Part shown: positions 3,622 through 34,000 of the stretch, piece after piece
Position numbering within the stretch: the stretch's first letter is position 1
Layout: each line of letters starts with the position of its first letter
From: Kiritimatiellia bacterium
Lineage (GTDB): Bacteria > Verrucomicrobiota > Kiritimatiellia > RFP12 > UBA1067
Direction: 5' to 3'
NCBI GenBank assembly: GCA_017403825.1
Contig: JAFRDO010000065.1
Coordinates: 6,438 to 70,437 of the forward strand
DNA: 64,000 nucleotides
Position numbers and translations under genes: made by a program
The notes under the pieces: model-generated
The model's input: only the letters and a program-made list of their open reading frames with translations
The model's database searches: none
Told to the model about the DNA's origin: nothing

Positions 3622-3808
3622 TTTCCGCCTCCTTGTATCCCCGTTAGACAACAGACAATACCCTATGTGCAGCTCTGTGCCACCATATGATTATTTGCCT
3701 GCGATCGGTATTATAGCAGTTTCGGTTTGGGTCTGTAAAGCGAACCTCAGCCTGAGATCCCGCCTTGGGCGAGTGAGGACGGCGCAGCCATTGGGCCGCA
3801 CCGTCTGT

Positions 3809-5770
3809 TTATTTATACGTCTGCACGAAACCAGCAGTCTCTTCTACCGCAAGAACCGGCAGAACGGAAGCGCCAAGCCGCAGCATCACGTCCTCATCAG
3901 CCTTTATGTCAAGCGACCAGACTTCAGCCGGCGCCATATTCCGTTCCCCAGTCAGCGTGACCGCCGCCGTCTGGCGCGGCATGGACGCGACAACCGCACC
4001 TGCGGCGTTCAGCATAGATACCGCCGCCGGCTCCTCGGGAGTGACCGCCGCATACACCTTCTTCGCGCCGTCCGGCACAGGGAAATAGAGTCGGCAAGTT
4101 TCGCGGAACAGGTTGAGAGACGTGTCGGCCAGAAGCCCCTGGCCGGGATATGGCGAGCTAACGGACACCGTGTTGCCGCGCGTGTCGATCTCGAACCGGC
4201 GCAGGTTGCGTCCCGCCGTCTTGACCGATGCTTTCTGCACGGCGGCGGTGATGCTGAACGTGCCAAGGTCCGTCCCCATCATGTCCCTCATCTGCACGGG
4301 ACAGTTCAGCTTGCGGTTGCCGACGGTCTTCGCCCTGAAGGTCAGCGTGTACTCGCCTTCCTTCGGCAGATGCTGTAGGAACGTGAACTTTCCCCGGCAC
4401 ATGGGCGTCGCCTTCTTCACCGCAGAATCCGGCGCAATCGGACGCAGCGCCCGATAGTCCACAAATCCGCCGCCGAACGCCTTGCGCAATTCCGGGTTCG
4501 GACGGTTCTTCGCGGCAAGCGCGACAAAGTCAAACGGCGCAGACGCACCGTCGCGCTCGACCGAAAGCGTGCCGCCGACGGACTCGATGCCGACGCCCAC
4601 CGTCCCGGAGAACTCGACCGCCGGCTCCTTGTCCACGACAAGGCGGCAATTCTCGAACGACAGGTTCGCGGCATCGTCTGACAATCCGTTGTTGCTGACC
4701 AGTAGTCCGCTCCATGTTCCGCCGCGCGCGTCAAGCAACGTGTCCTTCACTGCAACTGACGCCGTCTCGCGCGAGACCCCGTTGACGACCATCGCCCGCG
4801 AACGGTTTCCGGCGAACTGGCAGTTCTCAACGCGAATCGCGCCTTTCACTGGCTTCCGCCTGCCGTTGGCGCCCACCGTAATCGCAAGGCCGTTCGCCGC
4901 ATTGCCGCGCGCGCGGCAGTTCCTCAGGGTTACGGAAATCGGCTCCGTCGTCTCGTCCAGACACGTCAGGTGAAACAGAATGCCGCTCGAGGCGTTGCCA
5001 TCGAACTCGCAGTTCTCGACGACGCAGTTGGAGAGGCGGTCAGTCGGCCTGTTCGGCTCGAAGTCGATGCCGCACTGCGGCGGCGTTCCCTTCGTGGCCG
5101 TAAAGCGCGAATCCGCGATGGTGAGATTGTGCGCCCCTGTGATGCTGATGCCCTGTCGGTAGTGGTCGCGGCAGTCCACGCGGCGAATGTCAATGTCCGT
5201 GCTGTTCCGTCCGACGTAGATGCCGTCGCCTCCGGAATAGCGGAACGAGAGATCTGAGACGCGGACATTGGCGCTGTTTATGATATTGAGAGTGTGACGC
5301 CATTCGCTGAAGCAGTATGCCTTGCGGTCGGTATAGGCGTCGCGCTCCATCCGAAGAAGCGCATTCCCCTCTCCGCGCAAAACGACGTTAGAAACGCCGC
5401 GAGCGGTGAACAGGCAGTCGTTCCGACCCTTGTACGCGCCTGTCAGCGCCCGCACCGTCACACCGTCTTCGACGACAACCTCCTGATTGGAGCGAAGGAA
5501 TACCGGCTCGACGATCCAGTCTCCCGACTGCCGGTCGATCACAACTTTCGCCGCGCCGGAGTCAAAAGCCGTCTGAAGGCACTTAGTCGCATTCGTCGCG
5601 TTCCACCCGAACGACGAGGCCTTCACGCCACAGGGAGAACTGGTTTCTCGCCCATTCACTTGTAGCTCTCGCCGCGCAGCACAACTGGCGAGATGTCCGT
5701 TGTTCCGATGACATCCCGCCACCGATATAGCTGCCAAAGACAAAGCAACCACAAGTTTCACCGGCGACAT
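3809..5770 (-). CDS. Lipoprotein with right-handed parallel beta-helix repeats (pectate-lyase fold, GH28/polysaccharide-lyase-like)
   Basis: ATG at 5770 gives MSPVKLVVALSLAAISVAGC, a lipobox. The body has repeated beta-helix signatures ('NCVVENCEFDGNASSGILFH', 'RNCRARGNAANGLAIT', 'ENCQFAGNRSRAMVV'). The track ORF extends to 5881, but that upstream part lacks a signal peptide. Confidence 0.6.
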   Translation of the reverse strand: MSPVKLVVALSLAAISVAGCHRNNGHLASCAARRELQVNGRETSSPCGVKASSFGWNATNATKCLQTAFDSGAAKVVIDRQSGDWIVEPVFLRSNQEVVVEDGVTVRALTGAYKGRNDCLFTARGVSNVVLRGEGNALLRMERDAYTDRKAYCFSEWRHTLNIINSANVRVSDLSFRYSGGDGIYVGRNSTDIDIRRVDCRDHYRQGISITGAHNLTIADSRFTATKGTPPQCGIDFEPNRPTDRLSNCVVENCEFDGNASSGILFHLTCLDETTEPISVTLRNCRARGNAANGLAITVGANGRRKPVKGAIRVENCQFAGNRSRAMVVNGVSRETASVAVKDTLLDARGGTWSGLLVSNNGLSDDAANLSFENCRLVVDKEPAVEFSGTVGVGIESVGGTLSVERDGASAPFDFVALAAKNRPNPELRKAFGGGFVDYRALRPIAPDSAVKKATPMCRGKFTFLQHLPKEGEYTLTFRAKTVGNRKLNCPVQMRDMMGTDLGTFSITAAVQKASVKTAGRNLRRFEIDTRGNTVSVSSPYPGQGLLADTSLNLFRETCRLYFPVPDGAKKVYAAVTPEEPAAVSMLNAAGAVVASMPRQTAAVTLTGERNMAPAEVWSLDIKADEDVMLRLGASVLPVLAVEETAGFVQTYK

Positions 5771-5787
5771 CCCTTCACTTATATGAT

Positions 5788-7107
5788 TCACCGCGCAACA
5801 GCCGGGCAGACCACGCGGAAGCCGATATCGGGCTCGTAGGGCGTAGCAGTGGAAGAAGTAGTGCGCATTCCACTTCCGCACTCGCCCTTGCCTGTTTTAT
5901 AGCCGCCGCCTTTGATGACGCGATAGGTGCCGCCATCACCTGCTTCAGGCCCTTCGGGATCGACAACCGCGCTCCCGTCGGAAGCGGTAGGGCCACCACC
6001 CCAGGCATCAAGACAAATTTCTCCTACATTGCCGTGCATATCGTAGAGCCCGTATGCGTTCGGCTTCAGCAAACCGACCTCTTGGGCAGTTCCCAACGCA
6101 GTCCCCCACGAATCCGCCCACATGTATTGATCGCATACGCCACGACCATCTACAAAAACGCCTTGTGTGCCGTTCCATGAGATGTTGTCATACCAGAGCG
6201 TAGTCGAACCAGCTCGGCAGGCGAATTCCCATTGTGCCTCGGTCGGAAGGTCGAACTCCATTCCTCCCGCAATGCCGCGAATTAGCTTGATGAAACGATC
6301 CGGGCTATCCTGAACCTCATGACCGTCACGCGGCCAATACTTGCTGGAGCCTCTGATATTGGCGCATGGCGTGTAAGCCCTTGGCTGCTTTTCCTCCTGA
6401 TGGTACTGATTGTCAGGAGCCAGATTCGACTGCGAAGGCCAGACGGTGGCATACTGCTTTGCCGTCAGTTCGTAGATGCCCATGTAGAAGTCATCCGTGA
6501 GCGATACGGCGTGCGGCGGCATGGCAATGTTGCGACTAAGCCAATAGCTGTAATAGGCGGACATTCCAGGGTCGTTCGTCGGATATCCCATCGTGAACGT
6601 CTCGCCGCCGGCGGGGATGCGGCGCATGACAAGCTTGGTCGTCTTGTAAACGTCGTCGGAGATGCCGCCAGGAATGGCGTTAGTGCTGTTGTAGTACTTG
6701 CGGCCACCATTCGTCAGGTCTAGCACGAAATAGTCAGGCGGGTTCGTGAGCGCCCTTGCGCTCACCTTCACCGAAACACCAGAAGCGATCTTGTGTTCCG
6801 GCCAGTCCTTCGTCGCCGCCCAGTAGATGAAGTTCGTCGCCGTTGCGCTTGGTGCGACAACCGTGTTCACCGCGCCCTTAAGACTGGTGAAGTTCTCCTC
6901 GCCGATGCTCACGCCGTTAGTGAGGACATCTACCGTGACGACGGCACTCTCCGTACCTGTCAGCTTGTAGTTGATAACAACATCCCGCTTGCCATTCTGA
7001 GCATAGGCGACATCGGAGACGTTGATTTCTCCGGCAGCGCAGATGCCGGATATGAGAGTCACTGCGGCAGCCGAAAAGGACTTGATGAAGTGATTGGTGC
7101 TTTTCAT
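5788..7107 (-). CDS. Secreted protein with a C-terminal FGE-sulfatase (SUMF1/EgtB/PvdO-type) domain
   Basis: ATG at 7107 with AAGGAA upstream. Signal peptide MKSTNHFIKSFSAAAVTLISGICAAG. The C-terminal half has FGE-domain hallmarks 'YGLYDMHGNVGEICLD' and 'RVIKGGGYKTGKGECGSGMRTTS'. The N-terminal ~200 aa are not recognised. Confidence 0.65.
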   Translation of the reverse strand: MKSTNHFIKSFSAAAVTLISGICAAGEINVSDVAYAQNGKRDVVINYKLTGTESAVVTVDVLTNGVSIGEENFTSLKGAVNTVVAPSATATNFIYWAATKDWPEHKIASGVSVKVSARALTNPPDYFVLDLTNGGRKYYNSTNAIPGGISDDVYKTTKLVMRRIPAGGETFTMGYPTNDPGMSAYYSYWLSRNIAMPPHAVSLTDDFYMGIYELTAKQYATVWPSQSNLAPDNQYHQEEKQPRAYTPCANIRGSSKYWPRDGHEVQDSPDRFIKLIRGIAGGMEFDLPTEAQWEFACRAGSTTLWYDNISWNGTQGVFVDGRGVCDQYMWADSWGTALGTAQEVGLLKPNAYGLYDMHGNVGEICLDAWGGGPTASDGSAVVDPEGPEAGDGGTYRVIKGGGYKTGKGECGSGMRTTSSTATPYEPDIGFRVVCPAVAR

Positions 7108-19111: not shown

Positions 19112-22100
19112 TTAGAATTCCTCTTCGAACTTCGGAGTCCGTTTTTTCTTTTGGGAGCCCTGCACGCGGGAGGGGCGCGATTTGCCGAGGGTGGTGCTAT
19201 CAGCAGCATTATGGGGAGGAGTGGAGAGAGGACTGCCTTCGATGACGGCGATTTCGTCTTTGGAGAGTCCGTAGAGGGTATAGACGAGGGCGTCGATTTC
19301 GCGCTCCAGGGCTGAGGTGTCGGCAGAGGGGTTGCGGCGCTTGGCGGAGAGAATGCGGTCAACGAGGGCGATCATTTGTGCCTGTTGCTTTGGAGAAGCA
19401 AAAGGAAAAACTGGTAAAGCATCTACCTCATAGCCGTTCACATTGGAGTTTGTACTAAACTTTGAAAAATAAAAATTCATGAGCCGACTGTTCAAAACAC
19501 CTAACAGAACACGAGCCTTTTTACCACCAATAGGAATATAGTTAGCCGAATTCGCACAATACACGCCCCGTGCCAGAGTCGCTTTGATGCGCCACTTCTC
19601 ATTTACACCAGTGATTCCCTGTAAAACTATCCGCTCACTATCCCGCAGCTTATGCATCGCCTCAAGATCTTTCAGTTTTTTCTCGTTTACAAAAAGATGT
19701 TCGCCCTGACTCATTATCGTCGGCAACGAGTACCGCGCAATGCCTGCCCCTCTTAACATTTTGGGGAACTTAGAGTTTTTAGAAAATGCTTCTCTGGCAA
19801 AGGTCATGTCCAATTCGCCTGTCGCACATCTACTTACAGTAGTCAGCCTTTGCGCCGCACCACGCACCTTGAAAAGCACACGATAGTCTATCTCCCCCGC
19901 TATTGGAAGACGTCCATATTCGGGATCAAGTTCAATCAATGATTTGCACGGCAAATGAAATGACTCACCATCATAATCAACATAACTATCAGTATTGATT
20001 CTTAACACCATGTCACCTTGTGGCCTTGCATTTAGGGCCAAAAAAATGCAGACGGACATTTTTGCAGCTTCAAACACTCGTTTAGCGGGATTGTCTCGTT
20101 CTGGGAATGCATCAAAAGATATTGCTTGATAATTTGAAAACACATATTTTCGCAACGACGCCGCACTTAAATCTCCTGCAAAAGCTAAAGGAAAAATCTC
20201 TGAAAACACACCTGCATCAGATAGCAATTTAAGACTTTTCTGAATAAATAGACGATAGATATTTATAGTTCCACGGCCTCTTGCCTCCGAGAACTCTGGC
20301 GAATTTTTATAATAGGACATCGTGTCTTCATCGACAACAATCGCCACGCCCTTGTTTTGCCGCTTATTTACCAATCCATACGGCGGGTTGCCGATGACAA
20401 TATCAAAGCCGTCCTTGACGTTGAACATCCATTCGGGGTCGAAGAACTCGGCATGGACGTTCTGGTTGTATGGGTCCCATGAGGCCATCAGCCGTGTCGA
20501 TTCCTCCGAATAGCCTACCTTCTTCGCCGCGACGGCAAGGCGCTTGCGAAGCCTCTTGTCCTCATGGCGGAGTTCGTTCTTCTCCTGCCGCGTCTTCGCA
20601 AGGAAATGCCTGTGCCGCACGTCCCAGAGCGCATCCTTCGTCTCCTGTATGTCGCCCGTCTCGAAGAACAGGTCTCGCTGCGCCTCCTTCTCCAGTCCGA
20701 TGAGCGAATTCGCCGCGACGAATTTCGTCTCAAGGTTCGGCAACGTGTTTATGCCGTAGTTCGGCTTCGTCTTGTCGGGCTTTTGCTCGCAGACGAGCGA
20801 GATGAACATGCGGAGTTTGGAAATCTGCACCGCTATCTCCTGAATGTCAGAGCCGAAGATGCAGTTCTCTATGAGGCTCAGTTTGAGTCCGTAGAGATTG
20901 GCGTCCTCGGGTAGCCCCTTCAGGATTCGCAGGAGTTCGGTCATTTTCAGCAGTTCCCCCATCGGGAATGCACCAGAGCCGCAGGCAGGGTCAAGAATCT
21001 TCGCCGCCTCAACTGCCGCGACAAGCCGTGCGCAAATGGCATCGTCGGACGGGCGAATGCCGTCCGCGACAAGCGCACGGACGGTCGCCTCGTCTGCCTT
21101 TGCCTTTTCTGTGAGATAGACGACAAGCGATTCGTCAACCATGTAGTTTACGATTTCGCGGGGCGTGTAGAATGAGCCCGTTGAATTCCGCACGACCACC
21201 TCAGTCTCGGGATTGTATGCACCCAGCAGGTTCTCGAACACCTTGCCGAGCAGTTCTGGGTCAAGCGCAACGTCCTCGTCGCCAGGCGAATTCTCCTCAA
21301 CCGTGAAATTGTATCGCTTGAGGAGAGGAATGATGCCGTAGTCTGGGTCAAAGAAAAGGTCGTTCGGCACGTGCGCCCATGTGAGCGTGCCGAGGTCGCG
21401 ATGATGTTCCTGCAACGAAAACCCGTCATAGTACATGACCTTGCCGTCGTCGCCCTCTTGGTCAAGGCACTCGAAGAGCCCGCCGTTCAGGAACGGAATC
21501 GGACGGAAGAGGTCAAGGACCGCCTCCTTTGAAATCGCAAACTCATCGGCATAGCGGTATGTTGTCTTGACGCCATGATGCCGCGACATCGCCTTCCCGC
21601 CTGCCTTCCGCCCACTCGGCGCGTCCGCAAATTTCCTGTCGCCGATTTCGGAGTTGAGAGTGGCAAAGAACAGGTTCTGGAGGATTGCGCGATAGTACTG
21701 GTGCTGCTTGCGTCCGACAGGATTGAAGTCCTTGAGAATTTTCCGCAGATAGTTCTCATCGAAGAGTTCGGCAGGCACAAGCCCCTTCTGCTTCAGGAAC
21801 CACACGAACATGAGGCGAGTGATAAGCCGCAGGAGATGCTTGCGGTTCTTGTCCTCGCGGTTGTCTGCGTCGGTGTCAAGCCCGTTCGGGTATTCGACGC
21901 GCCTGTCGTCGCAGGCACGCTCGTACCACGCAAAGAGCAGGTTGTAGAACTCCTTGGTGAGCTTCTCGACCGAAAATGCCTCCTTGATGCCTTTCAGCGT
22001 GCTCCAGCTCATGCACATGCGCTGGACGAACGTTGCATTGGCGTCGGGGTCGTTCGTCACATAGAAACTCTGGCGGCGGGCCTTGCTCCAGTTGAACTTC

Positions 22101-22510
22101 CCGTTCTCGGGGGTGGCGGTGACGAGGCTCACGCGGAAACGTCCCTTCGCATCGTGGAACACGAACACCCCTTGGGCGATCACGCCGTCGAGTTCCATCG
22201 GCGGCGTCGCGGCAAAATGCTCCAGCACCTTCTTCGCCAGCTTGAACTGACGGATACGGCTGGAGCGCTCGGTAAGGGCGGCGGAGAGCGGCACGTCTGC
22301 CACGAGGAGCGGAGCCGTAAGGCCGTTCTCGCCAGGGAGGTCCCTGACCACGCCCAGAACACTGACCTTCTCGTCGCTGACCGCCCGAAAGAAGTAATCC
22401 CGTCCCACCGACACAAATGCCGCAGGGGCACAGGCCAACTTCAAGATTCGCACGAAACCATCTGCCGTATAGTCCCCGATCAGTTCCCGAACCGCCTCTT
22501 TCGACACCAT
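19112..22510 (-). CDS. Large gamma-class N6-adenine DNA methyltransferase of Type IIG / Eco57I / BREX-PglX type (~1130 aa) with a C-terminal target-recognition region. No recognisable endonuclease domain.
   Basis: ATG at 22510; the track start at 22522 is TTG. Motif I 'ILDPACGSGAFPMGEL'. Motif IV 'DIVIGNPPYGLV'. The C-terminal ~430 aa (coordinates ~19112-20400) are markedly lower in GC (~43%) than the N-terminal part (~58%). Confidence 0.8.
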   Translation of the reverse strand: MVSKEAVRELIGDYTADGFVRILKLACAPAAFVSVGRDYFFRAVSDEKVSVLGVVRDLPGENGLTAPLLVADVPLSAALTERSSRIRQFKLAKKVLEHFAATPPMELDGVIAQGVFVFHDAKGRFRVSLVTATPENGKFNWSKARRQSFYVTNDPDANATFVQRMCMSWSTLKGIKEAFSVEKLTKEFYNLLFAWYERACDDRRVEYPNGLDTDADNREDKNRKHLLRLITRLMFVWFLKQKGLVPAELFDENYLRKILKDFNPVGRKQHQYYRAILQNLFFATLNSEIGDRKFADAPSGRKAGGKAMSRHHGVKTTYRYADEFAISKEAVLDLFRPIPFLNGGLFECLDQEGDDGKVMYYDGFSLQEHHRDLGTLTWAHVPNDLFFDPDYGIIPLLKRYNFTVEENSPGDEDVALDPELLGKVFENLLGAYNPETEVVVRNSTGSFYTPREIVNYMVDESLVVYLTEKAKADEATVRALVADGIRPSDDAICARLVAAVEAAKILDPACGSGAFPMGELLKMTELLRILKGLPEDANLYGLKLSLIENCIFGSDIQEIAVQISKLRMFISLVCEQKPDKTKPNYGINTLPNLETKFVAANSLIGLEKEAQRDLFFETGDIQETKDALWDVRHRHFLAKTRQEKNELRHEDKRLRKRLAVAAKKVGYSEESTRLMASWDPYNQNVHAEFFDPEWMFNVKDGFDIVIGNPPYGLVNKRQNKGVAIVVDEDTMSYYKNSPEFSEARGRGTINIYRLFIQKSLKLLSDAGVFSEIFPLAFAGDLSAASLRKYVFSNYQAISFDAFPERDNPAKRVFEAAKMSVCIFLALNARPQGDMVLRINTDSYVDYDGESFHLPCKSLIELDPEYGRLPIAGEIDYRVLFKVRGAAQRLTTVSRCATGELDMTFAREAFSKNSKFPKMLRGAGIARYSLPTIMSQGEHLFVNEKKLKDLEAMHKLRDSERIVLQGITGVNEKWRIKATLARGVYCANSANYIPIGGKKARVLLGVLNSRLMNFYFSKFSTNSNVNGYEVDALPVFPFASPKQQAQMIALVDRILSAKRRNPSADTSALEREIDALVYTLYGLSKDEIAVIEGSPLSTPPHNAADSTTLGKSRPSRVQGSQKKKRTPKFEEEF

Positions 22511-23211
22511 CTTGTCCACCAATTCCCGTCCGCGCTACCAAGTTTGACCCGCCGTGCCGCGCAGACAGAAAAAAGAAACGCGGCGTGCCTTCAGTCCAAT
22601 ATCCCGATTGAGGCACGACCAAGCGCCTTGTAGTGAATACGGAAAGAAAGCACGTCGCGTGTGCAACGCACACGCGACGCACCCCGCTTATCTCGCTCAC
22701 TACTTGAATGTTTGGTCGTTTTCAATCAGAGCTCGATACGCAAGTTGCGTAGCGTGACCTCCTTTGCGCTTTCCACCTTCGCGCGAGGCTACTGTGGACG
22801 AATTGCGCTACGGAGGTCGTGCCGGGTTCCTTTTGGGATTTCCCGGCTCCTCGTTCCGCCGTTCATTGCCGACACGGCATCTGCGAGGTTCTGCCAGTTG
22901 CGTCGCTTGCGCGGCGCTTCGGGCCGATGGCGGGCGTTGAATGCCACCCGCCGATGTCAAAGATCACCTGTCCCCCATTCAAGGAACAGCACAATTATAT
23001 CATAAAAAAAGTGGCTAGTGGGTAGGCGAAAAATGGCGGACGTGTCGTCTCCGCCTGTGGGTGAAATCCTAAGCCGATGAGCGCTGAAACACAGAGCCTC
23101 CATGACAAACAGCTCTTGGCGGCACGCTCCGACCACGTTCACCACGGCAAGTGGAGGTCCTCCTTGCTTCCGTTAGCCGCACATCCTGAATGAAAGTCGT
23201 TGTCTTCCCCT

Positions 23212-27891: not shown

Positions 27892-27967
27892 GGGGAAGTA
27901 GCTCAGTTGGTAGAGCATCACGTTCGCAACGTGGGGGTCGGGAGTTCGAATCTCCTCTTCTCCACCA
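27892..27967 (+). tRNA. tRNA-Ala (anticodon CGC), with encoded CCA
   Basis: GGGGAAGTAGCTCAGTTGGTAGAGCATCACGTTCGCAACGTGGGGGTCGGGAGTTCGAATCTCCTCTTCTCCACCA. The acceptor stem has the G3:U70 alanine identity pair. The anticodon loop is TTCGCAA (CGC). The T-arm is GGGAG/TTCGAAT/CTCCT. Confidence 0.85.
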
Positions 27968-27975
27968 TCGCAAAA

Positions 27976-28025
27976 GTGCATTTCGCCCAATAAAATCAAA
28001 GGTGAAATGCATTTTGTGTTTTATT
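27976..28025 (+). terminator. Rho-independent terminator after the tRNA
   Basis: The stem TGCATTTCGCC / GGTGAAATGCA (one mismatch) with loop caataaaatcaaa is followed by TTTTGTGTTTTATT. Confidence 0.7.
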
Positions 28026-28144
28026 GATCCGTCGTTGACTCTTGCCGTCTCTTTACTTTCCTTCCCAATGTGACAAGGGGGCAATTCCGGGGGCAAGGAT
28101 CGAACCTCCCACCGTGAGAGAATCGGCTTCTGCGCAAAAGGATC

Positions 28145-28268
28145 AAAAAATGTGCGCGACGAGGTTTGATTTCGGTCGAAAAATGTGCAGATGAAGGCAG
28201 ACTTTCGGTTGAAAAATGTGCAGATGAAGGCAGACTTTCGGTTGAAAAATGTGCAAGAGAAATGATAT
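28145..28268. repeat. Tandem 33-bp direct repeats (two perfect copies, one degenerate, one truncated) overlapping the promoter of the downstream ATPase gene
   Basis: The unit is GAAAAATGTGCAGATGAAGGCAGACTTTCGGTT, at 28178-28210 and 28211-28243. The degenerate copy at 28145-28177 is aaaaaatgtgcgcgacgaggtttgatttcggtc. The truncated copy at 28244-28268 runs into GATATAAT (-10), then GGAGG, then ATG at 28289. There are no spacers, so this is not CRISPR. Confidence 0.75.
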
Positions 28269-28288
28269 AATTTGCGCAGGAGGTCACT

Positions 28289-29626
28289 ATGCAAAGAGTT
28301 GCTTTCAATGAAATTGAGGCTTGGAACAAGCGAAAAAACCGCAAGCCGCTCATATTGATGGGCGCACGCCAAGTCGGCAAGACGTGGCTCATGGACGAAT
28401 TTGCCCGATCGGTCTATTCGGGTGATTCCGTTTCGGTGAACTTTATGGAGGACGATGCGATTCGCGAGAATTTCGAGACGGTGAAGCTTGATCCGAAAAC
28501 GCTTGTTTCGCTCATCCAGGCAAGAAGCGGACGAAGGATTGTACCCGGGAAGACACTTCTCGTCCTGGACGAGATACAGGAATCGCCCAGAGCATTGACC
28601 TCGCTCAAGTTCTTCAACGAGAAGATGCCGGAGTTGGCGATCATCGCCGCAGGGTCTCTCCTTGGTCTCAGCCTTCGCAGAAAGCACGGCACGAAGGAGC
28701 GAGAGTCAAAAGGTTCCTTTCCCGTCGGAAAAGTCGATTTCATAGACGTTCGGCCGATGACGTTCTCAGAGTATCTTTTGGCAAGAGGCGAATCGGTGAA
28801 GTCCGACGAGCTTGCCACCGGGAACTGGGAGATCCTCAACCTTATCCACGATGAAATGGTTAGACACCTCAAGGATTATCTGTTTGTCGGCGGAATGCCT
28901 GACGCAGTTAGGACTTTTGTCGCAAACGGTGACTATCTTGAGACACGCCGAACGCAGAAATCCATTCTGAAGGCATATGACAAGGATTTCGTCAAACACG
29001 CCGAGCCTTCGCTCCTCCCCCGCATCCGTCTTCTCTGGAACAACGTCTCGGCACAGCTTGGGAAACCAAACAAGAAGTTCATATACAAAGCGATGAAGGA
29101 AGGTGCGCGCGGGCGAAGCTATGAGGACGCCTTGCAGTGGCTGGACGACGCAGGCATGGTTCATCAGGTGTTCCGTGCGGATCCGCCTCGTATGCCGCTC
29201 AAGTCTTACGAGGATTTTTCCGCGTTCAAGTTGTACATGCATGACGTGGGGCTTCTTGGTGCGATGAGTGGACTTCCGGCATCGGCGCTTCTCGAACTAA
29301 ACTCGATATTTACAAATTTCAAAGGCGCCTTGACGGAACAGTACGTGCTCCAAGAATTGCTTGCGGCAGGGGTGTCTCCGTCGTACTGGGCGGCGGAACG
29401 CGGTGACGCAGAGGTGGATTTTATCGTGCAGGGGTCCAAGGCCGTATTCCCCGTAGAAGTCAAGGCCGAGCGCAATCTCAAGGCGAAAAGCCTGAAGACA
29501 TATCGTGAATTCTTCAAGCCACCGGTCTGCTATCGAACATCGCTTTCTGAATATGCCGCAGGGCGATTGACACGCGACATTCCGCTCTATGCCGTCGCCC
29601 GCATCGCCGAGGAAGTGCGCAAATGA
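28289..29626 (+). CDS. AAA+ ATPase of the DUF4143 family ('ATP-binding protein')
   Basis: The Walker A 'ILMGARQVGKTWL' is followed by the long C-terminal region typical of DUF4143 proteins. It has its own promoter (TATAAT at ~28264) and RBS GGAGG. Confidence 0.75.
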   Translation: MQRVAFNEIEAWNKRKNRKPLILMGARQVGKTWLMDEFARSVYSGDSVSVNFMEDDAIRENFETVKLDPKTLVSLIQARSGRRIVPGKTLLVLDEIQESPRALTSLKFFNEKMPELAIIAAGSLLGLSLRRKHGTKERESKGSFPVGKVDFIDVRPMTFSEYLLARGESVKSDELATGNWEILNLIHDEMVRHLKDYLFVGGMPDAVRTFVANGDYLETRRTQKSILKAYDKDFVKHAEPSLLPRIRLLWNNVSAQLGKPNKKFIYKAMKEGARGRSYEDALQWLDDAGMVHQVFRADPPRMPLKSYEDFSAFKLYMHDVGLLGAMSGLPASALLELNSIFTNFKGALTEQYVLQELLAAGVSPSYWAAERGDAEVDFIVQGSKAVFPVEVKAERNLKAKSLKTYREFFKPPVCYRTSLSEYAAGRLTRDIPLYAVARIAEEVRK

Positions 29627-29650
29627 GATGGCCGAAAGAGAGATGAAGTC

Positions 29651-30097
29651 ATGGAGAAGTTCGAGGTGGTCGTGATGTGCGGGATTCCCGGAAGCGGCAA
29701 GACGACGTTTTGCCGCGAGCGGTTGTTTCCGCAGTATCTCTACATTTCGCTCGACCGGCTCAGGTCGCGGTCGGCGGAGGCGGAGCTTTTCGCATTTGCG
29801 CTGCGCCGCAGAAAGAGTTGCGTCATCGACAACACTAACATCAACGGACACGAGAGGACTCGTTACGTCCCGGCCGCCAAGAAAGCAGGCGCGAGCGTTG
29901 TCGCATACTGGTTCGATCCAGACGTCAGGGCGTGCAGGGCAAGGAACGCGAGCCGGACTGGGCGCGAGCGCGTGCCTGACTTCGTAATAGGGACCAAGGC
30001 GGCCCGCTTTGCCCCGCCGAACAAGGCGGAAGGGTTCGACGACATCCGCAAGGTGTCCATAGACGGCGACGGTTTCAAGGTGGAGGAGGGAATATGA
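29651..30097 (+). CDS. P-loop polynucleotide 5'-kinase-like protein (T4 Pnk kinase-domain-like / AAA_33)
   Basis: 'VVMCGIPGSGKTTFCRE' aligns to T4 Pnk 'TIGCPGSGKSTWARE'. 'VIDNTNINGHER' aligns to 'IISDTNLNPERR'. 'CRARNASRTGRERVPDFVI' aligns to 'VKRNSKRGTKAVPIDVL'. It overlaps the next gene by 4 nt. Confidence 0.65.
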   Translation: MEKFEVVVMCGIPGSGKTTFCRERLFPQYLYISLDRLRSRSAEAELFAFALRRRKSCVIDNTNINGHERTRYVPAAKKAGASVVAYWFDPDVRACRARNASRTGRERVPDFVIGTKAARFAPPNKAEGFDDIRKVSIDGDGFKVEEGI

Positions 30098-30834
30098 GAA
30101 AGAATGGTCTTGGCGACCGAATGAAAGAGTACGAGCGTGCGAGCGACGTGAAACTAGTCCGCCGGCTGCCGATGATCGTTCGGCTTGACGGCAAGGCGTT
30201 TCATTCATGGACGAAGAAAACGGGATGCGTCCGCCCGTTCGACCACACGTTCATCGAAATGATGGCGGGGCTGGCGCAGTACCTCTGCGAGAACATCGGC
30301 GGCGCGGAACTGGCCTACGGGCAGTCCGACGAGATATCAATTCTCGTGCGGGACGACCAGAACCTCGACACCGACGCGTGGTTCGACAAGCGGTTGCAGA
30401 AGGTCGTTTCCATCGTGGCATCGATGGCAACGTATTGGTTCAACGCGAACAACGCCTTCGAGAAAAAGCTCCCCGCGTTCTTCGATGCGAGGGCATTCAT
30501 ACTGCCTGAACATGAGGTCAAAAATTACTTCATCTGGCGGCAAGAGGATGCCACGACGAACAGTCTCTCTATGCTGGCCCAGAGCCTGTACCGACATGGG
30601 GAGTTGCAGCACAAGAAGTGGACAGAGCTGCAGGAAATGTGCTGGCGGAAGGATTGCAACTGGAACAACCTCGATTCGGTCGAGAAGCGGGGTTTCTGTG
30701 TCTATCGCCAAGAGGTGGTCGTAGAAGGACGACAGGGGCCTGTCAAGCGGATGAAGTTCCTCGTGGACCGCGCCATCCCGATCTTCACAAGCTCGGATTC
30801 CGCCGGGTGGTGGTCTCGGTTCCTGAAGGCGTAA
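30094..30834 (+). CDS. Thg1-like protein (tRNA-His guanylyltransferase family; 3'-5' nucleotidyltransferase)
   Basis: 'MKEYERASDVKLVRRLPMIVRLDGKAFHSWTK' matches the Thg1 N-terminal signature (fe....l.p...ivvRiDGr.FHkF). It is 246 aa, typical of bacterial TLPs. Confidence 0.8.
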   Translation: MRKNGLGDRMKEYERASDVKLVRRLPMIVRLDGKAFHSWTKKTGCVRPFDHTFIEMMAGLAQYLCENIGGAELAYGQSDEISILVRDDQNLDTDAWFDKRLQKVVSIVASMATYWFNANNAFEKKLPAFFDARAFILPEHEVKNYFIWRQEDATTNSLSMLAQSLYRHGELQHKKWTELQEMCWRKDCNWNNLDSVEKRGFCVYRQEVVVEGRQGPVKRMKFLVDRAIPIFTSSDSAGWWSRFLKA

Positions 30835-30846
30835 GGAGTTATAGCA

Positions 30847-31084
30847 ATGCGGATAATGGCGACAACTGGCTTGCACGGCAACCTTGAGGGCTCGACCCCA
30901 AGAGTGCGGATATCGTCGTCCTTACGGGCGACATCGCACCGCTGCGCGGTTGCGGGCTATGGACGCCTGTACAAAGCAACGTTGGGCGTGATTTGCAGCC
31001 AATCCCGCCCGACAGTTTCCGGCCTCGAAAGCGTCATTGGCACGACTCGACGGACGCAAGGAACTCCAGCCTGTCGGCGACATA
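30847..31084 (+). pseudogene. Frameshifted, truncated calcineurin-like metallophosphoesterase remnant
   Basis: AAGGAG, 8 nt, then ATG at 30847, which reads MRIMATTGLHGNLEG. After an apparent 1-nt deletion the +1 frame reads LDPKSADIVVLTGDIAP. Together these form the canonical phosphoesterase N-terminus (DxHG...GDxx). Homology is lost after ~35 codons, and the frame runs into the convergent GH78 gene end. Confidence 0.5.
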
Positions 31085-34000
31085 GACCATGCAGTTCACC
31101 CAGTCGCTGCCGTTCCGGCTGTCGAAGTAGGTTGGTATGGTGCCGTCGGCGCGCTGGTGCCGCGTGACGTTGTCGGCGAGAGCCTTCGCCTTTTCAATGA
31201 AAAGCCCGTTCCCAGTCGCCTTATACGCCGCCGCAAATGCGCCGATCATGTCGCCCATAGAAGCGTCGATCGGCGTGTAGTAGTCGTATTGCTCGAGCGC
31301 AGTCGGGGTCTTCCAGTTCTTCCAGTCCATGTTGTGGATCGGATCGCTCCACACGACAAACTGGTCTTCGCACCAGTCTACGATTTCGCAAGCCTCGGCG
31401 TTGCGTCCGAGCGAAAAGAGACTGAGCGCCGTATCTACGGCGACGCCCTTCTGCATGTTCCGGTAAGGCGGCATGGGATCCATGTCCTCGAACTGTCCGT
31501 CCCAGTTCCAGTTCGTTGCAGGCCCCTTCAGCACGTATCCGAACGCGCGGTCGCGCGCAGCGGCGAAAGCCGCGTCGCCCGTGGCGGCGAACGCGCGGTC
31601 GAACGCTCCAAGCACGTAGCGCGACGGCACAAGGCGGTTGGCGCGGACGGGCGAGCCGTCCTTCTCGCTCACCTTGAGCGGCCACGTACCGTCCTCGCCC
31701 TGAAGCCTCATGTAGCTTCGGACAATGTCAAGCGCGGCGTCGCGGTATTTCCCGTCGCGCGTCGCTTCCGCCAAGTCAAGGTAGGCGTGCGCGGCATGAG
31801 CGGGATAGTGCAGCATGTGCTGCCCCGCGTACTTCACCGCCACGTCGCGGCGGTCGCCCCAGTACGTGGGCGGGAAATGCGCGAGCGGCGTCCCGGCAGG
31901 CTGGCTGTGGGCAATGAGCCAGTCGGCCATCTTACGGGCGATGGCAAGGGCATCCGCCGAGTCCTTAGGCTCCGCCTTGGCGTGGCGGCAGAGCGCACGA
32001 ATCATCGAACTGAGTATCTTGGCCGGATAGCAGTAGAGGTCGTAGCCTTTCGGCGGATCGTCGGACGTGCGCCAGCCCTGCACCTGCAGCATGTTGAACA
32101 CCGCCGCATATACCTTCCTCGCCGCATCGCGATAGTCGCACGCGCCCGAAGGATACGGACCGCGGAACACGGCGGCGCGGTAGAACGAGCGCTCGCCAGA
32201 GCCTTCGACCTTCAAAGTATAGTAGCCGGGCGCAAGTGAATCCCAGATGTCGGCGGGAACGGGAATCCAAGGCTTGACGGCAGTCCAATCCTTCAGCCAC
32301 TCGACCTCCGCCGATTGCTCCCGATTGCGTCCGATGCGATACCGATATTCCTTCACGCCGCCGATCTCCTTGAAGTCAAACGCCGGCGGATGCATGAACG
32401 CCTTAGAATGTCCGTTCCAGAACGGACGCACTCCCGGCACGCCTGCCCGCACCGGCGTCTTGGCTTGCTCACGTGCGGCGGCGTTCAGCTCCTGCCAACG
32501 GTCAGGAGCCCCCGACAGCTCGTAGTCGCCGGCGGCGTATTCACGAGAGGTGCCGTCAAGTCCGGAGACAAGAGCTACGCTTCCCGGCGGCACTGAGAAC
32601 TGCCAGACAAGCCGCCCCGCATCGTCGTACCGCCATGCGCTCCGAATCACGCCGAAGCCGCTGCGGTACGTCGCCGAACACGACCCGAGCCTACGGTCGG
32701 GATACGGCCTCAGCCTGAACCGCCGCCAGCCGCCATGCTCCGGGTCGGGGCGAATCCCCGCCGCCGCAGAGAACAGCCACTCCAGCACGCAACCGTAGGC
32801 GTAGTGGTTGAAGCTGTTCATGCCGACCGGACCGAAGCCCTTCTCCTTCGTGTAGCCGTTCCATCGCTCCCAGACAGTAGTCGCGCCCTGATCGACAGAG
32901 TAGAGCCAGCTCGGGAAGGCGTCCTGCAGCAGCAGCGAATACGCCAGATCCGGCGCGTCCGCCTCGAACGTCAGCGTCGGCAGCAGGATAGCCGTGCCGA
33001 GAAAGCCAGTCTGGAGCCGGTTCCCGTGAGCCTTGATGTTGGCGATCAGGTCGCGCTTCGTGGCCTCGACCGCCGCCGCGTTGCCGCAAAGGCCGAGCTT
33101 CAGCATGTAGAGGTCGTTGCACTGCCCCTTGTATTCGTCCTTGATCGTCCCGTCCGGCCCGACGTATTCCGCCGCGAACGCCTTGCGCAGCTTCGCCTCT
33201 TCCTCCGCATAGTGGCGCGCCGCCTCGGCTCTTCCAGTCGCCGCCGCCATCTCGCGCATGAGCATCGCCATCCACACGCGGAAGTACGCGTTGAGCGCCT
33301 TGACCTGGCGATCGTCCATCGCGTCGTCGGTGAGGTCGCCGGCGGGCTTTTCGTGATGCTCGAACGCAAGCCAGTCGCCGTGGTTGATGCGGTACGGCTC
33401 CGCGTCGCTTTCGAGGAAGTCCATGTAGCGGACCATCGAATCCCACGACTCGTCGACGAACCTGCGCTCGCCGTACCACTTCCACAGGCGGTATGGGACG
33501 ATCACCCCGGCGTCAGTCCACCCCGCGCTCGCCCACGGATCGGTGGTATGGCGCACGTTCGGCACGAAGCACATGTAACAGCCGTTGGCGCGCTGCGCGT
33601 CGCGCAGGTCGGCGAGAAACTTGCCGAGGAACTCCCGCGTGTCTGCTAGATATGCCGCGCTGTTCATGAACACCTGCGTGTCCGCCGTCCAGCCGAGACG
33701 CTCGTCGCGCTGCGGACAGTCCGTCGGCGACGAAAGATAGTTCGACAGCATCCCCCAGCGAATGTTCCCGACGAGCCTGTTCACGCGGTCGTTCCCGGTC
33801 ACGATGCTTCCCCTCTCCATCCCCTTCGTGACGGACGATACGGGCGTAGAGCGCCAGCGCGCGAACACGACCGGCCCTGTCGCCGTCACGCCCAAATAGC
33901 GGTAGCCGAAGTAAGTGTAGCGCGGCATGTACGACTGCGGGCCGTCCTTGAGCATGTAGCGGATTCCGGCGTAGGCCTCGCGCAGAGAGGCGAGATACGG

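Follow-up and report, generated by a model that had tools for sequence, protein, structure and literature searches.

The closest described counterpart of the locus analysed here is a conserved gene neighbourhood. According to the accessible text of Anantharaman, Iyer and Aravind 2010 (Biol Direct 5:43; PMC2904730), a polynucleotide kinase is the most persistent neighbour of bacterial Thg1, and this kinase was predicted to make the 5'-phosphate that Thg1 or the Thg1-like protein (TLP) needs. Subsets of the Thg1-kinase neighbourhoods were associated with RNA ligase genes, and MACRO-domain partners were also described. Bacterial and archaeal TLPs, including that of B. thuringiensis, are reported to perform templated repair of tRNA 5' ends in vitro (PMC3061083, PMC3701042). 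The searchable literature yielded neither a biochemical or genetic test of a TLP-associated kinase nor a report on what bacterial TLPs do in cells or where the damage comes from. Two other families met at this locus, PDC-S01 and PDC-S10, are PADLOC phage defence candidates that were defined by guilt-by-embedding (bioRxiv 10.1101/2024.01.29.577857).

The window, meaning the whole 64-kb stretch of DNA that was analysed, carries a kinase-TLP pair within a low-GC islet of approximately 3 kb. The features of the islet and its edge are as follows.

27892-27967, + strand: tRNA-Ala gene (anticodon CGC), found with ARAGORN and by Rfam (tRNA, 68 bits); upstream edge of the low-GC islet.
28143-28271, + strand: 33-nt tandem repeat in 3-4 copies (families D1 and D2), found by repeat search; overlaps a sigma-70-like promoter.
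28289-29626, + strand: DUF4143/AAA_14 ATPase (Pfam DUF4143 7.5e-37, AAA_14 4e-20); first gene of the co-directional run.
29651-30097, + strand: stand-alone P-loop kinase of the PNK family, 148 aa, with the P-loop GIPGSGKT and the family-invariant residues K17, D35, D60, R69 and R98.
30094-30834, + strand: Thg1-like protein (TLP), a predicted 3'-5' nucleotidyltransferase of 246 aa, with a Pfam Thg1 match and D32, D79 and E80 present.
30847 to about 31030, + strand: pseudogene of a 229-aa calcineurin-type metallophosphoesterase (MPE) of the PADLOC PDC-S10 family, recognised by two-frame reconstruction against intact copies.

The 148-aa protein belongs to the polynucleotide 5'-kinase clade that includes T4 Pnk, PNKP and Pnkp, and 5'-OH kinase activity is predicted from this placement. 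Pfam matched it to AAA_33 (1.1e-20). Searched against the PDB as a single sequence, the best match was the kinase domain of mouse PNKP (2.5e-15), with the kinase domain of C. thermocellum Pnkp at 4e-6 and T4 Pnk at only 1e-3. When a profile of the kinase family was used instead, all 16 matches (E<=1e-3) were PNKP, Pnkp, Pnkp1, PSTK, T4 Pnk (1.5e-8) or two fungal kinases, and the best partial matches in NCBIfam were the kinase regions of PNK-3'Pase and bacter_Pnkp. The relatives are polynucleotide or tRNA kinases; had they been shikimate or nucleotide kinases, the proposal of an earlier note made from the DNA would have failed. That note also described a clear similarity to T4 Pnk; its family assignment stands with the profile, but the choice of T4 Pnk as the particular relative was overstated in view of the direct score. 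Both the P-loop lysine (K17) and D35 were invariant across 11 family members. In the alignment D35 falls on the Asp in the 'NRD' stretch of PNKP, the catalytic residue that activates the 5'-OH. The kinase gene is under purifying selection, with dN/dS values of 0.11-0.35 against its relatives.

The 246-aa protein covered positions 2-130 of the 130 in the Pfam Thg1 model (PF04446; 7e-31, 107.3 bits against a cut-off of 29.2) and matched the B. thuringiensis TLP (PDB 4KGK) over residues 5-232 at 4e-57, which bears out its earlier description as Thg1-like. The match to human Thg1 (PDB 3OTB) was far weaker, at 2.5e-16. In the alignment to 3OTB, D32 (RLDG) and D79-E80 (QSDEIS) correspond to the metal-binding palm-domain carboxylates D29 and D76-E77 of the human enzyme. 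The HINNLYN motif, through which eukaryotic Thg1 recognises the anticodon, is absent, and its position reads ATTNSLS. The protein is accordingly classed by its sequence with the bacterial/archaeal TLP subgroup and not with eukaryotic Thg1, and 3'-5' addition is its predicted activity. Purifying selection was also seen for this gene (dN/dS 0.03-0.08 against relatives).

The start codon of the TLP gene (ATG, 30094-30096) overlaps the stop codon of the kinase gene (TGA, 30095-30097) in an ATGA, and both reading frames have the coordinates and lengths first reported for them. In 13/13 intact close TLP homologues the kinase lay immediately upstream of the TLP, abutting or overlapping it; the earlier note had made its proposal depend on this adjacency recurring in other genomes, and it does. 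The genes flanking the pair were unrelated from locus to locus, and similarity between the window and its relatives was confined to 29640-30830. Among distant TLPs (33-49% identity, from other phyla and phages), a PNK-like kinase was detectable within 3 kb in about 10 of approximately 57 loci. Within this clade the coupling is strong, but it is not universal. The pair also decays in some genomes, with an internal TLP deletion in one (L032) and only a TLP fragment kept in another (L018), and is therefore dispensable.

In relatives, the pair resides recurrently in operons of RNA-repair genes. One locus (L001) has the order RtcR..RtcA-RtcB-kinase-TLP and a second (L267) the order RtcB, a 167-aa ORF, kinase and TLP. 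RlaP-RlaP-kinase-TLP was found in L008 and L009, and the reversed order kinase-TLP-RlaP-RlaP in L006. At more distant loci, a full Pnkp lies 136 nt upstream of the TLP (L034) and a kinase-HD fusion lies upstream of a viral TLP (L140). The gene contexts of relatives were taken from homology mapping and from the gene calls that accompany the contigs, greedy ORF calling being unreliable in the high-GC loci. Since no ligase, RtcB, RtcA or RlaP gene is present anywhere in the 64-kb window, the pair here acts alone or with distant genes.

The pair follows the DUF4143 ATPase and the tRNA-Ala gene, as noted before, in DNA with a GC content of 0.49-0.60 compared with 0.63-0.66 in the flanks; the drop, from about 0.63 to 0.49-0.55, comes just past the tRNA-Ala. 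This lower GC, together with the restriction of similarity to the segment around the pair, fits the earlier suggestion of an acquired and partly decayed module. A promoter candidate at 28242-28271 (TTGAAA, 18 nt, TATAAT with TG; 11 of 12 consensus positions matched) faces the operon, within which no convincing terminator was found. The tRNA-Ala 3' end was not directly repeated at the distal edge of the islet, no integrase was found among the annotated ORFs between 24.9 and 35 kb, and Rfam gave no RNA besides the tRNA-Ala. The ATPase matched PDC-S01 over its full length (4e-159 over residues 1-440), PDC-S01 being a candidate only. Nothing similar to it was found in the other kinase-TLP loci, so it is no conserved companion of the pair.

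The locus is probably a small, horizontally acquired islet beside a tRNA-Ala gene that carries an intact, translationally coupled two-gene module for RNA 5'-end repair. We infer the following mechanism, and with it the substrate, the passing of the RNA end from the kinase on to the TLP and the origin of the damage. An RNA, most likely a tRNA stripped of 5' nucleotides of its acceptor stem, would be left with a 5'-OH end. The PNK-family kinase would move a phosphate from an NTP onto this 5'-OH, and the TLP would then activate the 5'-phosphate with ATP to give a 5'-adenylylated intermediate. The TLP would next add nucleotides in the 3'-5' direction by Watson-Crick pairing, copying the 3' strand of the acceptor stem. 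The earlier note raised a possible role against tRNA-targeting ribotoxins; near the examined copies of the pair, no ribotoxin was identified that takes nucleotides off the 5' side of the acceptor stem to leave a 5'-OH.

Downstream of the pair, and on the same strand, the sequence TAAGGAG followed after 8 nt by an ATG at 30847 marks the start of the MPE remnant, 12 nt after the TLP stop. The remnant itself had no Pfam or PDB match, and its homologues were seen only in a large protein collection, where the two-frame reconstruction (MRIMATTGLHGNLEG in one frame, LDPKSADIVVLTGDIAPLRG in the other) matched 26 proteins among 5.8 billion sequences with 71-86% identity and E values down to 6e-13. Several of the 26 carry PF00149. 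Intact copies are 229 aa long and match Pfam Metallophos with 62 bits against a cut-off of 21.5; one of them (L187, positions 997-1686) matched PDC-S10 over its full length (3.2e-43 over residues 1-228).

Compared with the intact copies, 1 nt is deleted after 30890, where GAGGGACT now reads GAGGGCT. Motif I is altered from SD to TG so that DxH reads GLH, the GNHD and GHxH motifs are missing, and the 3' end is gone before the convergent rhamnosidase gene (stop codon 31034-31036). Judged by the alignment, the loss of the metal-binding Asp, of one nucleotide and of the 3' end is certain, and an internal deletion of about 111 codons is probable. This sequence is identical in an ENA assembly and a Logan assembly (L036, L037), so the lesions cannot be put down to a single assembler. 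The MPE had been described as frameshifted and truncated behind a good ribosome-binding site, correctly on each count; in this genome the gene is dead and now plays no part.

Whether the 5' end of the MPE gene could be an att-like site, or one for cassette recombination, was also considered. This idea was dropped as less likely, because conservation begins exactly at the ATG and spans the whole gene. Many contigs stop 135 nt into the MPE gene, which is better explained by a branch in the k=141 assembly graph where a conserved gene meets variable upstream sequence.

The adjacency of the MPE and the DUF4143 ATPase to the pair may be incidental, which we regard as plausible though somewhat short of probable. 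The locus would then be a miniature defence island in which PDC-S01, PDC-S10 and kinase-TLP modules have been shuffled, and the MPE would be unrelated to the chemistry of the pair. The full-length matches of the ATPase to PDC-S01 and of the intact MPE to PDC-S10 point this way, these families having been defined as single-gene candidates by their embedding in BREX, DISARM or type I RM loci. Elsewhere, the MPE and an NTF2-like protein, here called X, adjoin or sit inside defence loci (AbiE; Z1-DUF4420-AIPR; Dcm-Vsr), and a 54%-identical homologue of X lies inside a type I-C CRISPR-Cas operon. Each module also has sharp boundaries and unrelated flanks. Against incidental adjacency, the tight spacing and stop/start overlap of the MPE with RlaP genes (L188, L038) suggest operon membership, and because PDC-S01 and PDC-S10 are themselves candidates, to call either a defence gene is to go by inference.

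It is unlikely, although some linkage favours it, that kinase, TLP and MPE once worked jointly and that the window holds the remnant of a decayed trio. The MPE would in that case have removed a 3'-phosphate or 2',3'-cyclic phosphate, the role of the Pnkp phosphatase, and the trio was possibly part of a larger set, RlaP-RlaP-kinase-TLP-X-MPE. Apart from the close spacing, shared strand and good ribosome-binding site of the MPE remnant, a chain of linkages supports such a set. RlaPa-RlaPb-kinase-TLP-X occurs in L009 and kinase-TLP-X in L035, while RlaPa-RlaPb-X-MPE occurs in L038 and RlaPa-RlaPb-MPE in L188 and L197. In L188 stop and start overlap by 7 nt, and the X that follows the TLP is 80% identical to the X that precedes the MPE. 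More distant support comes from the Pnkp (kinase, MPE and ligase) adjoining the TLP in L034, the kinase-HD fusion before the TLP in L140 and two viral contigs (L143, L152) in which a 332-aa MPE immediately follows the TLP. In 30 viral loci, Metallophos was moreover the family found most often in ORFs lying no more than 1 kb from the TLP (7/97 ORFs); however, this enrichment was not significant against the 3/95 ORFs of a control zone at 2.5-4 kb.

The intact three-gene form that the earlier note had hoped to reconstruct did not appear: 27 genome loci, 57 viral loci and all contexts of close TLP homologues were searched, and none held an intact kinase-TLP-MPE trio. The same MPE instead follows unrelated modules (AbiEi/AbiEii, an SLFN-HATPase protein, ORF6N, an HTH regulator), both of its flanks are unrelated between loci, and it has decayed here while the kinase-TLP pair is conserved. 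The MPE could belong to the kinase-TLP system, but its link to the repair genes is indirect, and it is maybe an independent defence-island gene.

A broader scheme, which we consider doubtful, would make the kinase-TLP pair one interchangeable arm of a ligase-independent rebuilding of both tRNA ends. The PNK kinase and TLP would rebuild the 5' end, the 229-aa MPE and two RlaP nucleotidyltransferases would heal and rebuild the 3' end, with the NTF2-like X as linker, all shuffled as defence-island cassettes in gut Kiritimatiellae-like bacteria; the window would be a stripped-down, half-decayed copy.

That the TLP is a housekeeping enzyme adding G-1 to tRNA-His like eukaryotic Thg1, with a kinase unrelated to that role, agrees with the family name, with the Pfam Thg1 model and with the fact that some bacteria and archaea do not encode G-1, but is very improbable given that the closest solved relative is a bacterial TLP (4e-57) and not Thg1 (about 1e-16), that HINNLYN is replaced, that the pair is mobile and patchy, in varied contexts, decayed in two relatives and here set within a low-GC islet, and that a 5'-kinase is always coupled to it although G-1 addition to RNase P products, which have 5'-phosphate ends, needs none.

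For this genome alone, the preferred two-gene repair module amounts to an ordinary accessory module beside a dead gene. Together with its relatives, the locus provides compact natural constructs for testing 5'-OH phosphorylation followed by 3'-5' extension, namely the 148-aa kinase coupled to the 246-aa TLP, the versions appended to RtcB operons and the versions joined to an RlaP pair. The PDC-S10 MPE and the NTF2-like X are leads for research on defence islands and RNA repair. Both were seen repeatedly to trail RNA-end-modifying modules in this clade.

Among known systems, the Pnkp/Hen1 (C. thermocellum Pnkp) and Pnkp1-Rnl-Hen1 systems of bacterial RNA repair (4GP7, 4XRP) have a homologous kinase domain (3e-18 and 1e-9 with the family profile), and the Pnkp end-healing pair likewise consists of a kinase and a calcineurin-type MPE. 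The kinase here stands alone, scoring 39.4 bits against a TIGR04075 cut-off of 750 and over the kinase region only. Unlike Pnkp/Hen1, it has no ligase domain and no adjacent ligase or Hen1 ORF, sealing would be replaced by the proposed 3'-5' fill-in, and the MPE is encoded separately, comes from another subfamily and is dead. The best solved relative with the profile is the kinase domain of mammalian PNKP (3U7G, 1YJ5; 9e-25), with which the P-loop and the 'NRD' Asp align; PNKP, however, works in DNA repair and also contains FHA and HAD phosphatase domains, neither of which accompanies the kinase here.

The Rtc operon (RtcR-RtcA-RtcB) is related by position, the kinase-TLP pair being a 3' extension of an rtc-type operon in L001 and L267; no rtc genes are present in the window. 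Because RtcB requires a 5'-OH end, the kinase-TLP route would be a separate branch and not a helper of RtcB. PADLOC recognises the window ATPase (PDC-S01) and the intact MPE (PDC-S10) over their full lengths, but returned no match for the kinase, the TLP, RlaP or X. The B. thuringiensis TLP (4KGK) has the same catalytic carboxylates as the TLP here and likewise lacks HINNLYN, with about 50% identity as estimated by eye; the present protein comes from a PVC-group (Kiritimatiellae-like) gut bacterium.

The accessible text of the 2010 study (PMC2904730) does not list the calcineurin-type MPE, the RlaP pair, RtcA/RtcB or the NTF2-like X that accompany relatives here. The Thg1/TLP-kinase neighbourhood that it describes has the same pair and the same logic, as a prediction only. 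The earlier note had offered the pairing as a new, non-canonical repair logic, but the same hand-off of a 5'-phosphate from kinase to TLP was already predicted there, and the locus is a further example of this known, predicted kinase-TLP repair pair.

The co-directional gene run spans positions 28289-31030 on the + strand. The features of this islet and its borders were located as follows.

27892-27967: tRNA-Ala(CGC), upstream of the gene run
28289-29626, + strand: DUF4143/AAA_14 ATPase, first gene of the run
29651-30097, + strand: kinase, 148 aa, starting 24 nt past the ATPase gene
30094-30834, + strand: Thg1-like protein (TLP), 246 aa, its ATG overlapping the kinase TGA (ATGA)
30847 (ATG), + strand: remnant of a calcineurin-type metallophosphoesterase (MPE), a short reading frame 12 nt past the TLP stop, preceded by TAAGGAG
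31034-31036 (stop codon), other strand: convergent GH78 rhamnosidase gene

Both the kinase and the TLP reading frames described in the earlier note were present with their ATGA overlap, and the succession of kinase, TLP and MPE remnant was confirmed. A 166,782-base ENA gut-metagenome scaffold (L036) was 100% identical to the window over 16.7 kb, and a separate Logan assembly (L037) was identical over the 400 bases compared (30701-31100). The nearest genome-derived relatives were MAGs carrying the labels Verrucomicrobia, Kiritimatiellae and Lentisphaerae; where a source was named, it was sheep, goat or yak gut.

From ~27970 to 31000 the GC content was 0.49-0.60, against 0.63-0.66 for the esterase and rhamnosidase genes on either side. 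This low-GC segment opens directly past the tRNA gene, which fits the suggestion of an acquired module. A search for att-like copies of the tRNA end was negative, and no integrase was seen among the annotated ORFs. The remaining neighbourhood consisted of carbohydrate-active enzymes (GH78 rhamnosidases, a BD-FAE esterase). A large gene at 19112-22522 (- strand), ~5 kb upstream of the islet, gave hits to N6_Mtase (faint), Eco57I and TaqI_C (weak) when analysed in the identical contig L036; these hits point to a putative type IIG restriction-modification enzyme. The DUF4143 ATPase matched the PADLOC family PDC-S01 over its full length (4e-159) and was found beside the kinase-TLP pair in no other locus examined. 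Upstream of it, a sigma-70-like promoter was predicted at 28242-28271 by consensus match only (11/12; TTGAAA, 18 nt, TATAAT with TG), from which ATPase, kinase and TLP could be expressed as a single transcript. A 33-nt unit (TTTCGGTTGAAAAATGTGCAGATGAAGGCAGAC) in three to four tandem copies (28143-28271) lies directly upstream of the ATPase gene and overlaps this match, the best in the region; it could be an operator-like array.

The kinase fell into Pfam AAA_33 (1.1e-20). Its best partial NCBIfam matches were to PNK-3'Pase (2e-17) and bacterial Pnkp (2e-10), in each case to the kinase region; since the rest of those proteins is absent here, both scores lie far under the full-length cut-offs. 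Among solved structures, the single sequence matched the kinase domains of mouse PNKP (2.5e-15) and Clostridium thermocellum Pnkp (4e-6), and T4 Pnk weakly (1e-3). With a profile built from 11 family members these values became 9e-25, 3e-18 and 1.5e-8, respectively, and all 16 of the 16 profile hits were polynucleotide or tRNA kinases (PNKP, Pnkp, Pnkp1, PSTK, T4 Pnk and two fungal kinases). The homologues are therefore not generic nucleotide or shikimate-type kinases, and the assignment as a Pnk-type kinase stands. The stress on T4 Pnk was slightly misplaced, since the PNKP and Pnkp kinase domains are the closest relatives. Residues K17 (P-loop), D35, D60, R69 and R98 were invariant in the family, D35 aligning with the Asp of the PNKP 'NRD' stretch.

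The second protein matched Pfam Thg1 (107 bits) and, over residues 5-232, the B. thuringiensis TLP structure 4KGK (4e-57), with human Thg1 at 2.5e-16; it was correctly called Thg1-like. By alignment, D32, D79 and E80 correspond to D29, D76 and E77 of human Thg1; where eukaryotic enzymes have HINNLYN, this protein, like the bacterial TLP, has ATTNSLS instead. The 4KGK match, the shared carboxylates and this replacement thus class the protein as a TLP-type enzyme. A dedicated tRNA-His G-1 enzyme was considered and rejected, the nearest structure being 4KGK and HINNLYN being absent.

Adjacency of the two genes recurred, as the proposal in the earlier note required. The kinase lay immediately upstream of the TLP, abutting or overlapping it, in 13/13 distinct intact homologues, namely TLPs of at least 70% identity placeable on a contig (including L001, L004, L006, L008-L012, L035, L266, L267 and L036, the window itself). 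Nucleotide similarity between the window and its relatives was limited to 29640-30830, the two genes, with unrelated flanks. Purifying selection acts on the TLP (dN/dS 0.03-0.08) as well as on the kinase (0.11-0.35). Identity to L008 was 91% for the TLP and 60% for the kinase, compared with 86% and 82% to L001, and this mosaic divergence inside the pair (29651-30834) suggests recombination between the two genes. Decayed pairs were seen in a Kiritimatiellae MAG (L032, 685-1304), where a 90%-identical kinase is kept and the TLP is internally deleted, and in L018 (6001-6249), where the sole remnant is an 83-codon TLP fragment. Among more remote TLPs from other phyla and phages (33-49% identity), ~10/57 loci had a PNK-like kinase within 3 kb.

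Gene context of the TLP in relatives and viruses
L001 (996-8738): RtcR, AAA protein, Y, RtcA-RtcB-kinase-TLP
L267 (113-3965): Y-RtcB-167-aa ORF-kinase-TLP
L008, L009, L266: RlaP(-RlaP)-kinase-TLP
L006: kinase-TLP-RlaP-RlaP, then AAA protein, Sel1 protein, RtcA-Cas1
L034 (Desulfatiglandales MAG; 3646-6618): complete Pnkp (AAA_33 + Metallophos + PNKP_ligase) 136 nt upstream of TLP
L140 (viral; 5105-6771): kinase-HD fusion directly upstream of TLP
L143 (314-2330) and L152 (664-2448), viral: 332-aa Metallophos protein directly downstream of TLP

The context of the pair in relatives points to RNA repair; none of these RNA-repair partner genes occurred within the 64-kb window. Y, a conserved uncharacterised protein of ~300 aa, lies upstream in both rtc-type loci. 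In a census of the ORFs lying no more than 1 kb from any of 70 non-redundant TLP genes, Metallophos was counted nine times, AAA_33 six times (an undercount from the ORF caller), HAD_SAK_2 twice, and RtcB, RlaP, RNA_ligase and PNKP_ligase once each. At 30 viral loci, the frequency of Metallophos near the TLP (7/97 ORFs) did not differ significantly from that in a control zone at 2.5-4 kb (3/95 ORFs).

Direct HMM and PDB searches with the MPE remnant were blank. A search of 5.8 billion sequences with a two-frame reconstruction gave 26 protein matches (71-86% identity, E-values down to 6e-13), all starting MRIMATSDLHGNLEGLDPKGADVVVLAGDIAPLRGRG and several carrying PF00149, so the description of a frameshifted, truncated phosphoesterase was correct. 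Intact copies on metagenome contigs encode 229 aa with GNHD and GHIH motifs (Pfam Metallophos, 62 bits). Relative to these, the window copy has TG in place of SD, which costs it the first metal-binding Asp; it lacks one base after 30890 (GAGGGACT to GAGGGCT); and its 3' end has been lost at the end of the rhamnosidase gene. Past LRG, the sequence resembles the post-deletion part of the variant P0121, whose 41 N-terminal residues run straight into PGSDVDRSLQ, implying that an internal deletion of ~111 codons is probable, though not certain. However the lesions are counted, the gene is dead.

The MPE behaved as a single-gene module. Between loci (L186-L192, L038-L048; intact example L187:997-1686) it was 75-83% identical at the nucleotide level, conservation running exactly from ATG to stop with both flanks unrelated. 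The preceding gene varied widely and often lay 0-15 nt away or overlapped the MPE: an RlaP pair (L188, L197, L038), AbiEi-AbiEii (L190), AbiEi alone (L189, L041), ORF6N (L187), an HTH regulator near Dcm and Vsr (L042), and a SLFN/AlbA_2-HATPase_c_4 protein itself after Z1-DUF4420-AIPR (L040). It decayed independently in at least four places, by internal deletion in L042, by an 11-nt duplication in L046, in P0121 and in the window. PADLOC called it PDC-S10 (3e-43), which like PDC-S01 is a candidate single-gene phage defence defined by embedding in BREX, DISARM or type I RM loci. Because of this modular behaviour and the presence of both PADLOC candidates, the islet may be a miniature defence island and the MPE an incidental neighbour, a tentative reading that we place just short of probable. 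Against pure coincidence stands a chain of linkage. Loci L035 and L009 have, after the TLP, a gene for a ~305-aa protein (X), of which an 80%-identical version is found ahead of the MPE in L038 and L046. One RlaP nucleotidyltransferase pair, RlaPa-RlaPb, lies in front of kinase-TLP (L008, L009), of X-MPE (L038) or immediately of the MPE (L188, L197). The same chain favours a former three-enzyme system of kinase, TLP and MPE, which we consider unlikely after weighing it with the census, the non-significant viral control and the module behaviour, the intact three-gene form that was sought having been recovered in none of the loci examined.

X (L038:5084-6010, L035:953-1864, L009:6720-7625, L270:7001-7924) is clade-restricted, occurring after the TLP in some loci and before the MPE in others, and had no match in Pfam, NCBIfam or PADLOC. 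Its AlphaFold model was confident (pLDDT 92), the fold matching NTF2/SnoaL-like proteins only. A 54%-identical homologue is flanked by Cas4/RhuM and Cas1 within a type I-C CRISPR-Cas operon.

Beside the observed gene identities, catalytic residues, coupling, conservation and RNA-repair neighbourhoods, we infer the RNA substrate, the kinase-TLP hand-off and the biological trigger from reported TLP activity and an earlier prediction. An RNA (most likely a tRNA) that damage has shortened at its 5' end would be left with a 5'-OH; the kinase would add a 5'-phosphate; and the TLP would adenylylate this end and fill in the missing nucleotides 3'-5' with the 3' strand as template. Bacterial and archaeal TLPs are reported to have tRNA 5'-end repair activities (PMC3061083). 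The kinase-TLP pairing and its logic were predicted in 2010 by Anantharaman, Iyer and Aravind (PMC2904730), and the claim of a new, non-canonical repair logic is not upheld; no experimental test of the pair was found in the searchable literature. The cassette interpretation is otherwise supported, save for the putative role of the MPE. The linkage of RlaP, X and PDC-S10 and the rtc-appended versions of the pair are leads rather than established novelties. Networks of RlaP and phosphoesterases may already have been described by Burroughs and Aravind in 2016. RtcB itself requires a 5'-OH end, so that kinase-TLP would run parallel to RtcB, and not help it, wherever the two are found together.
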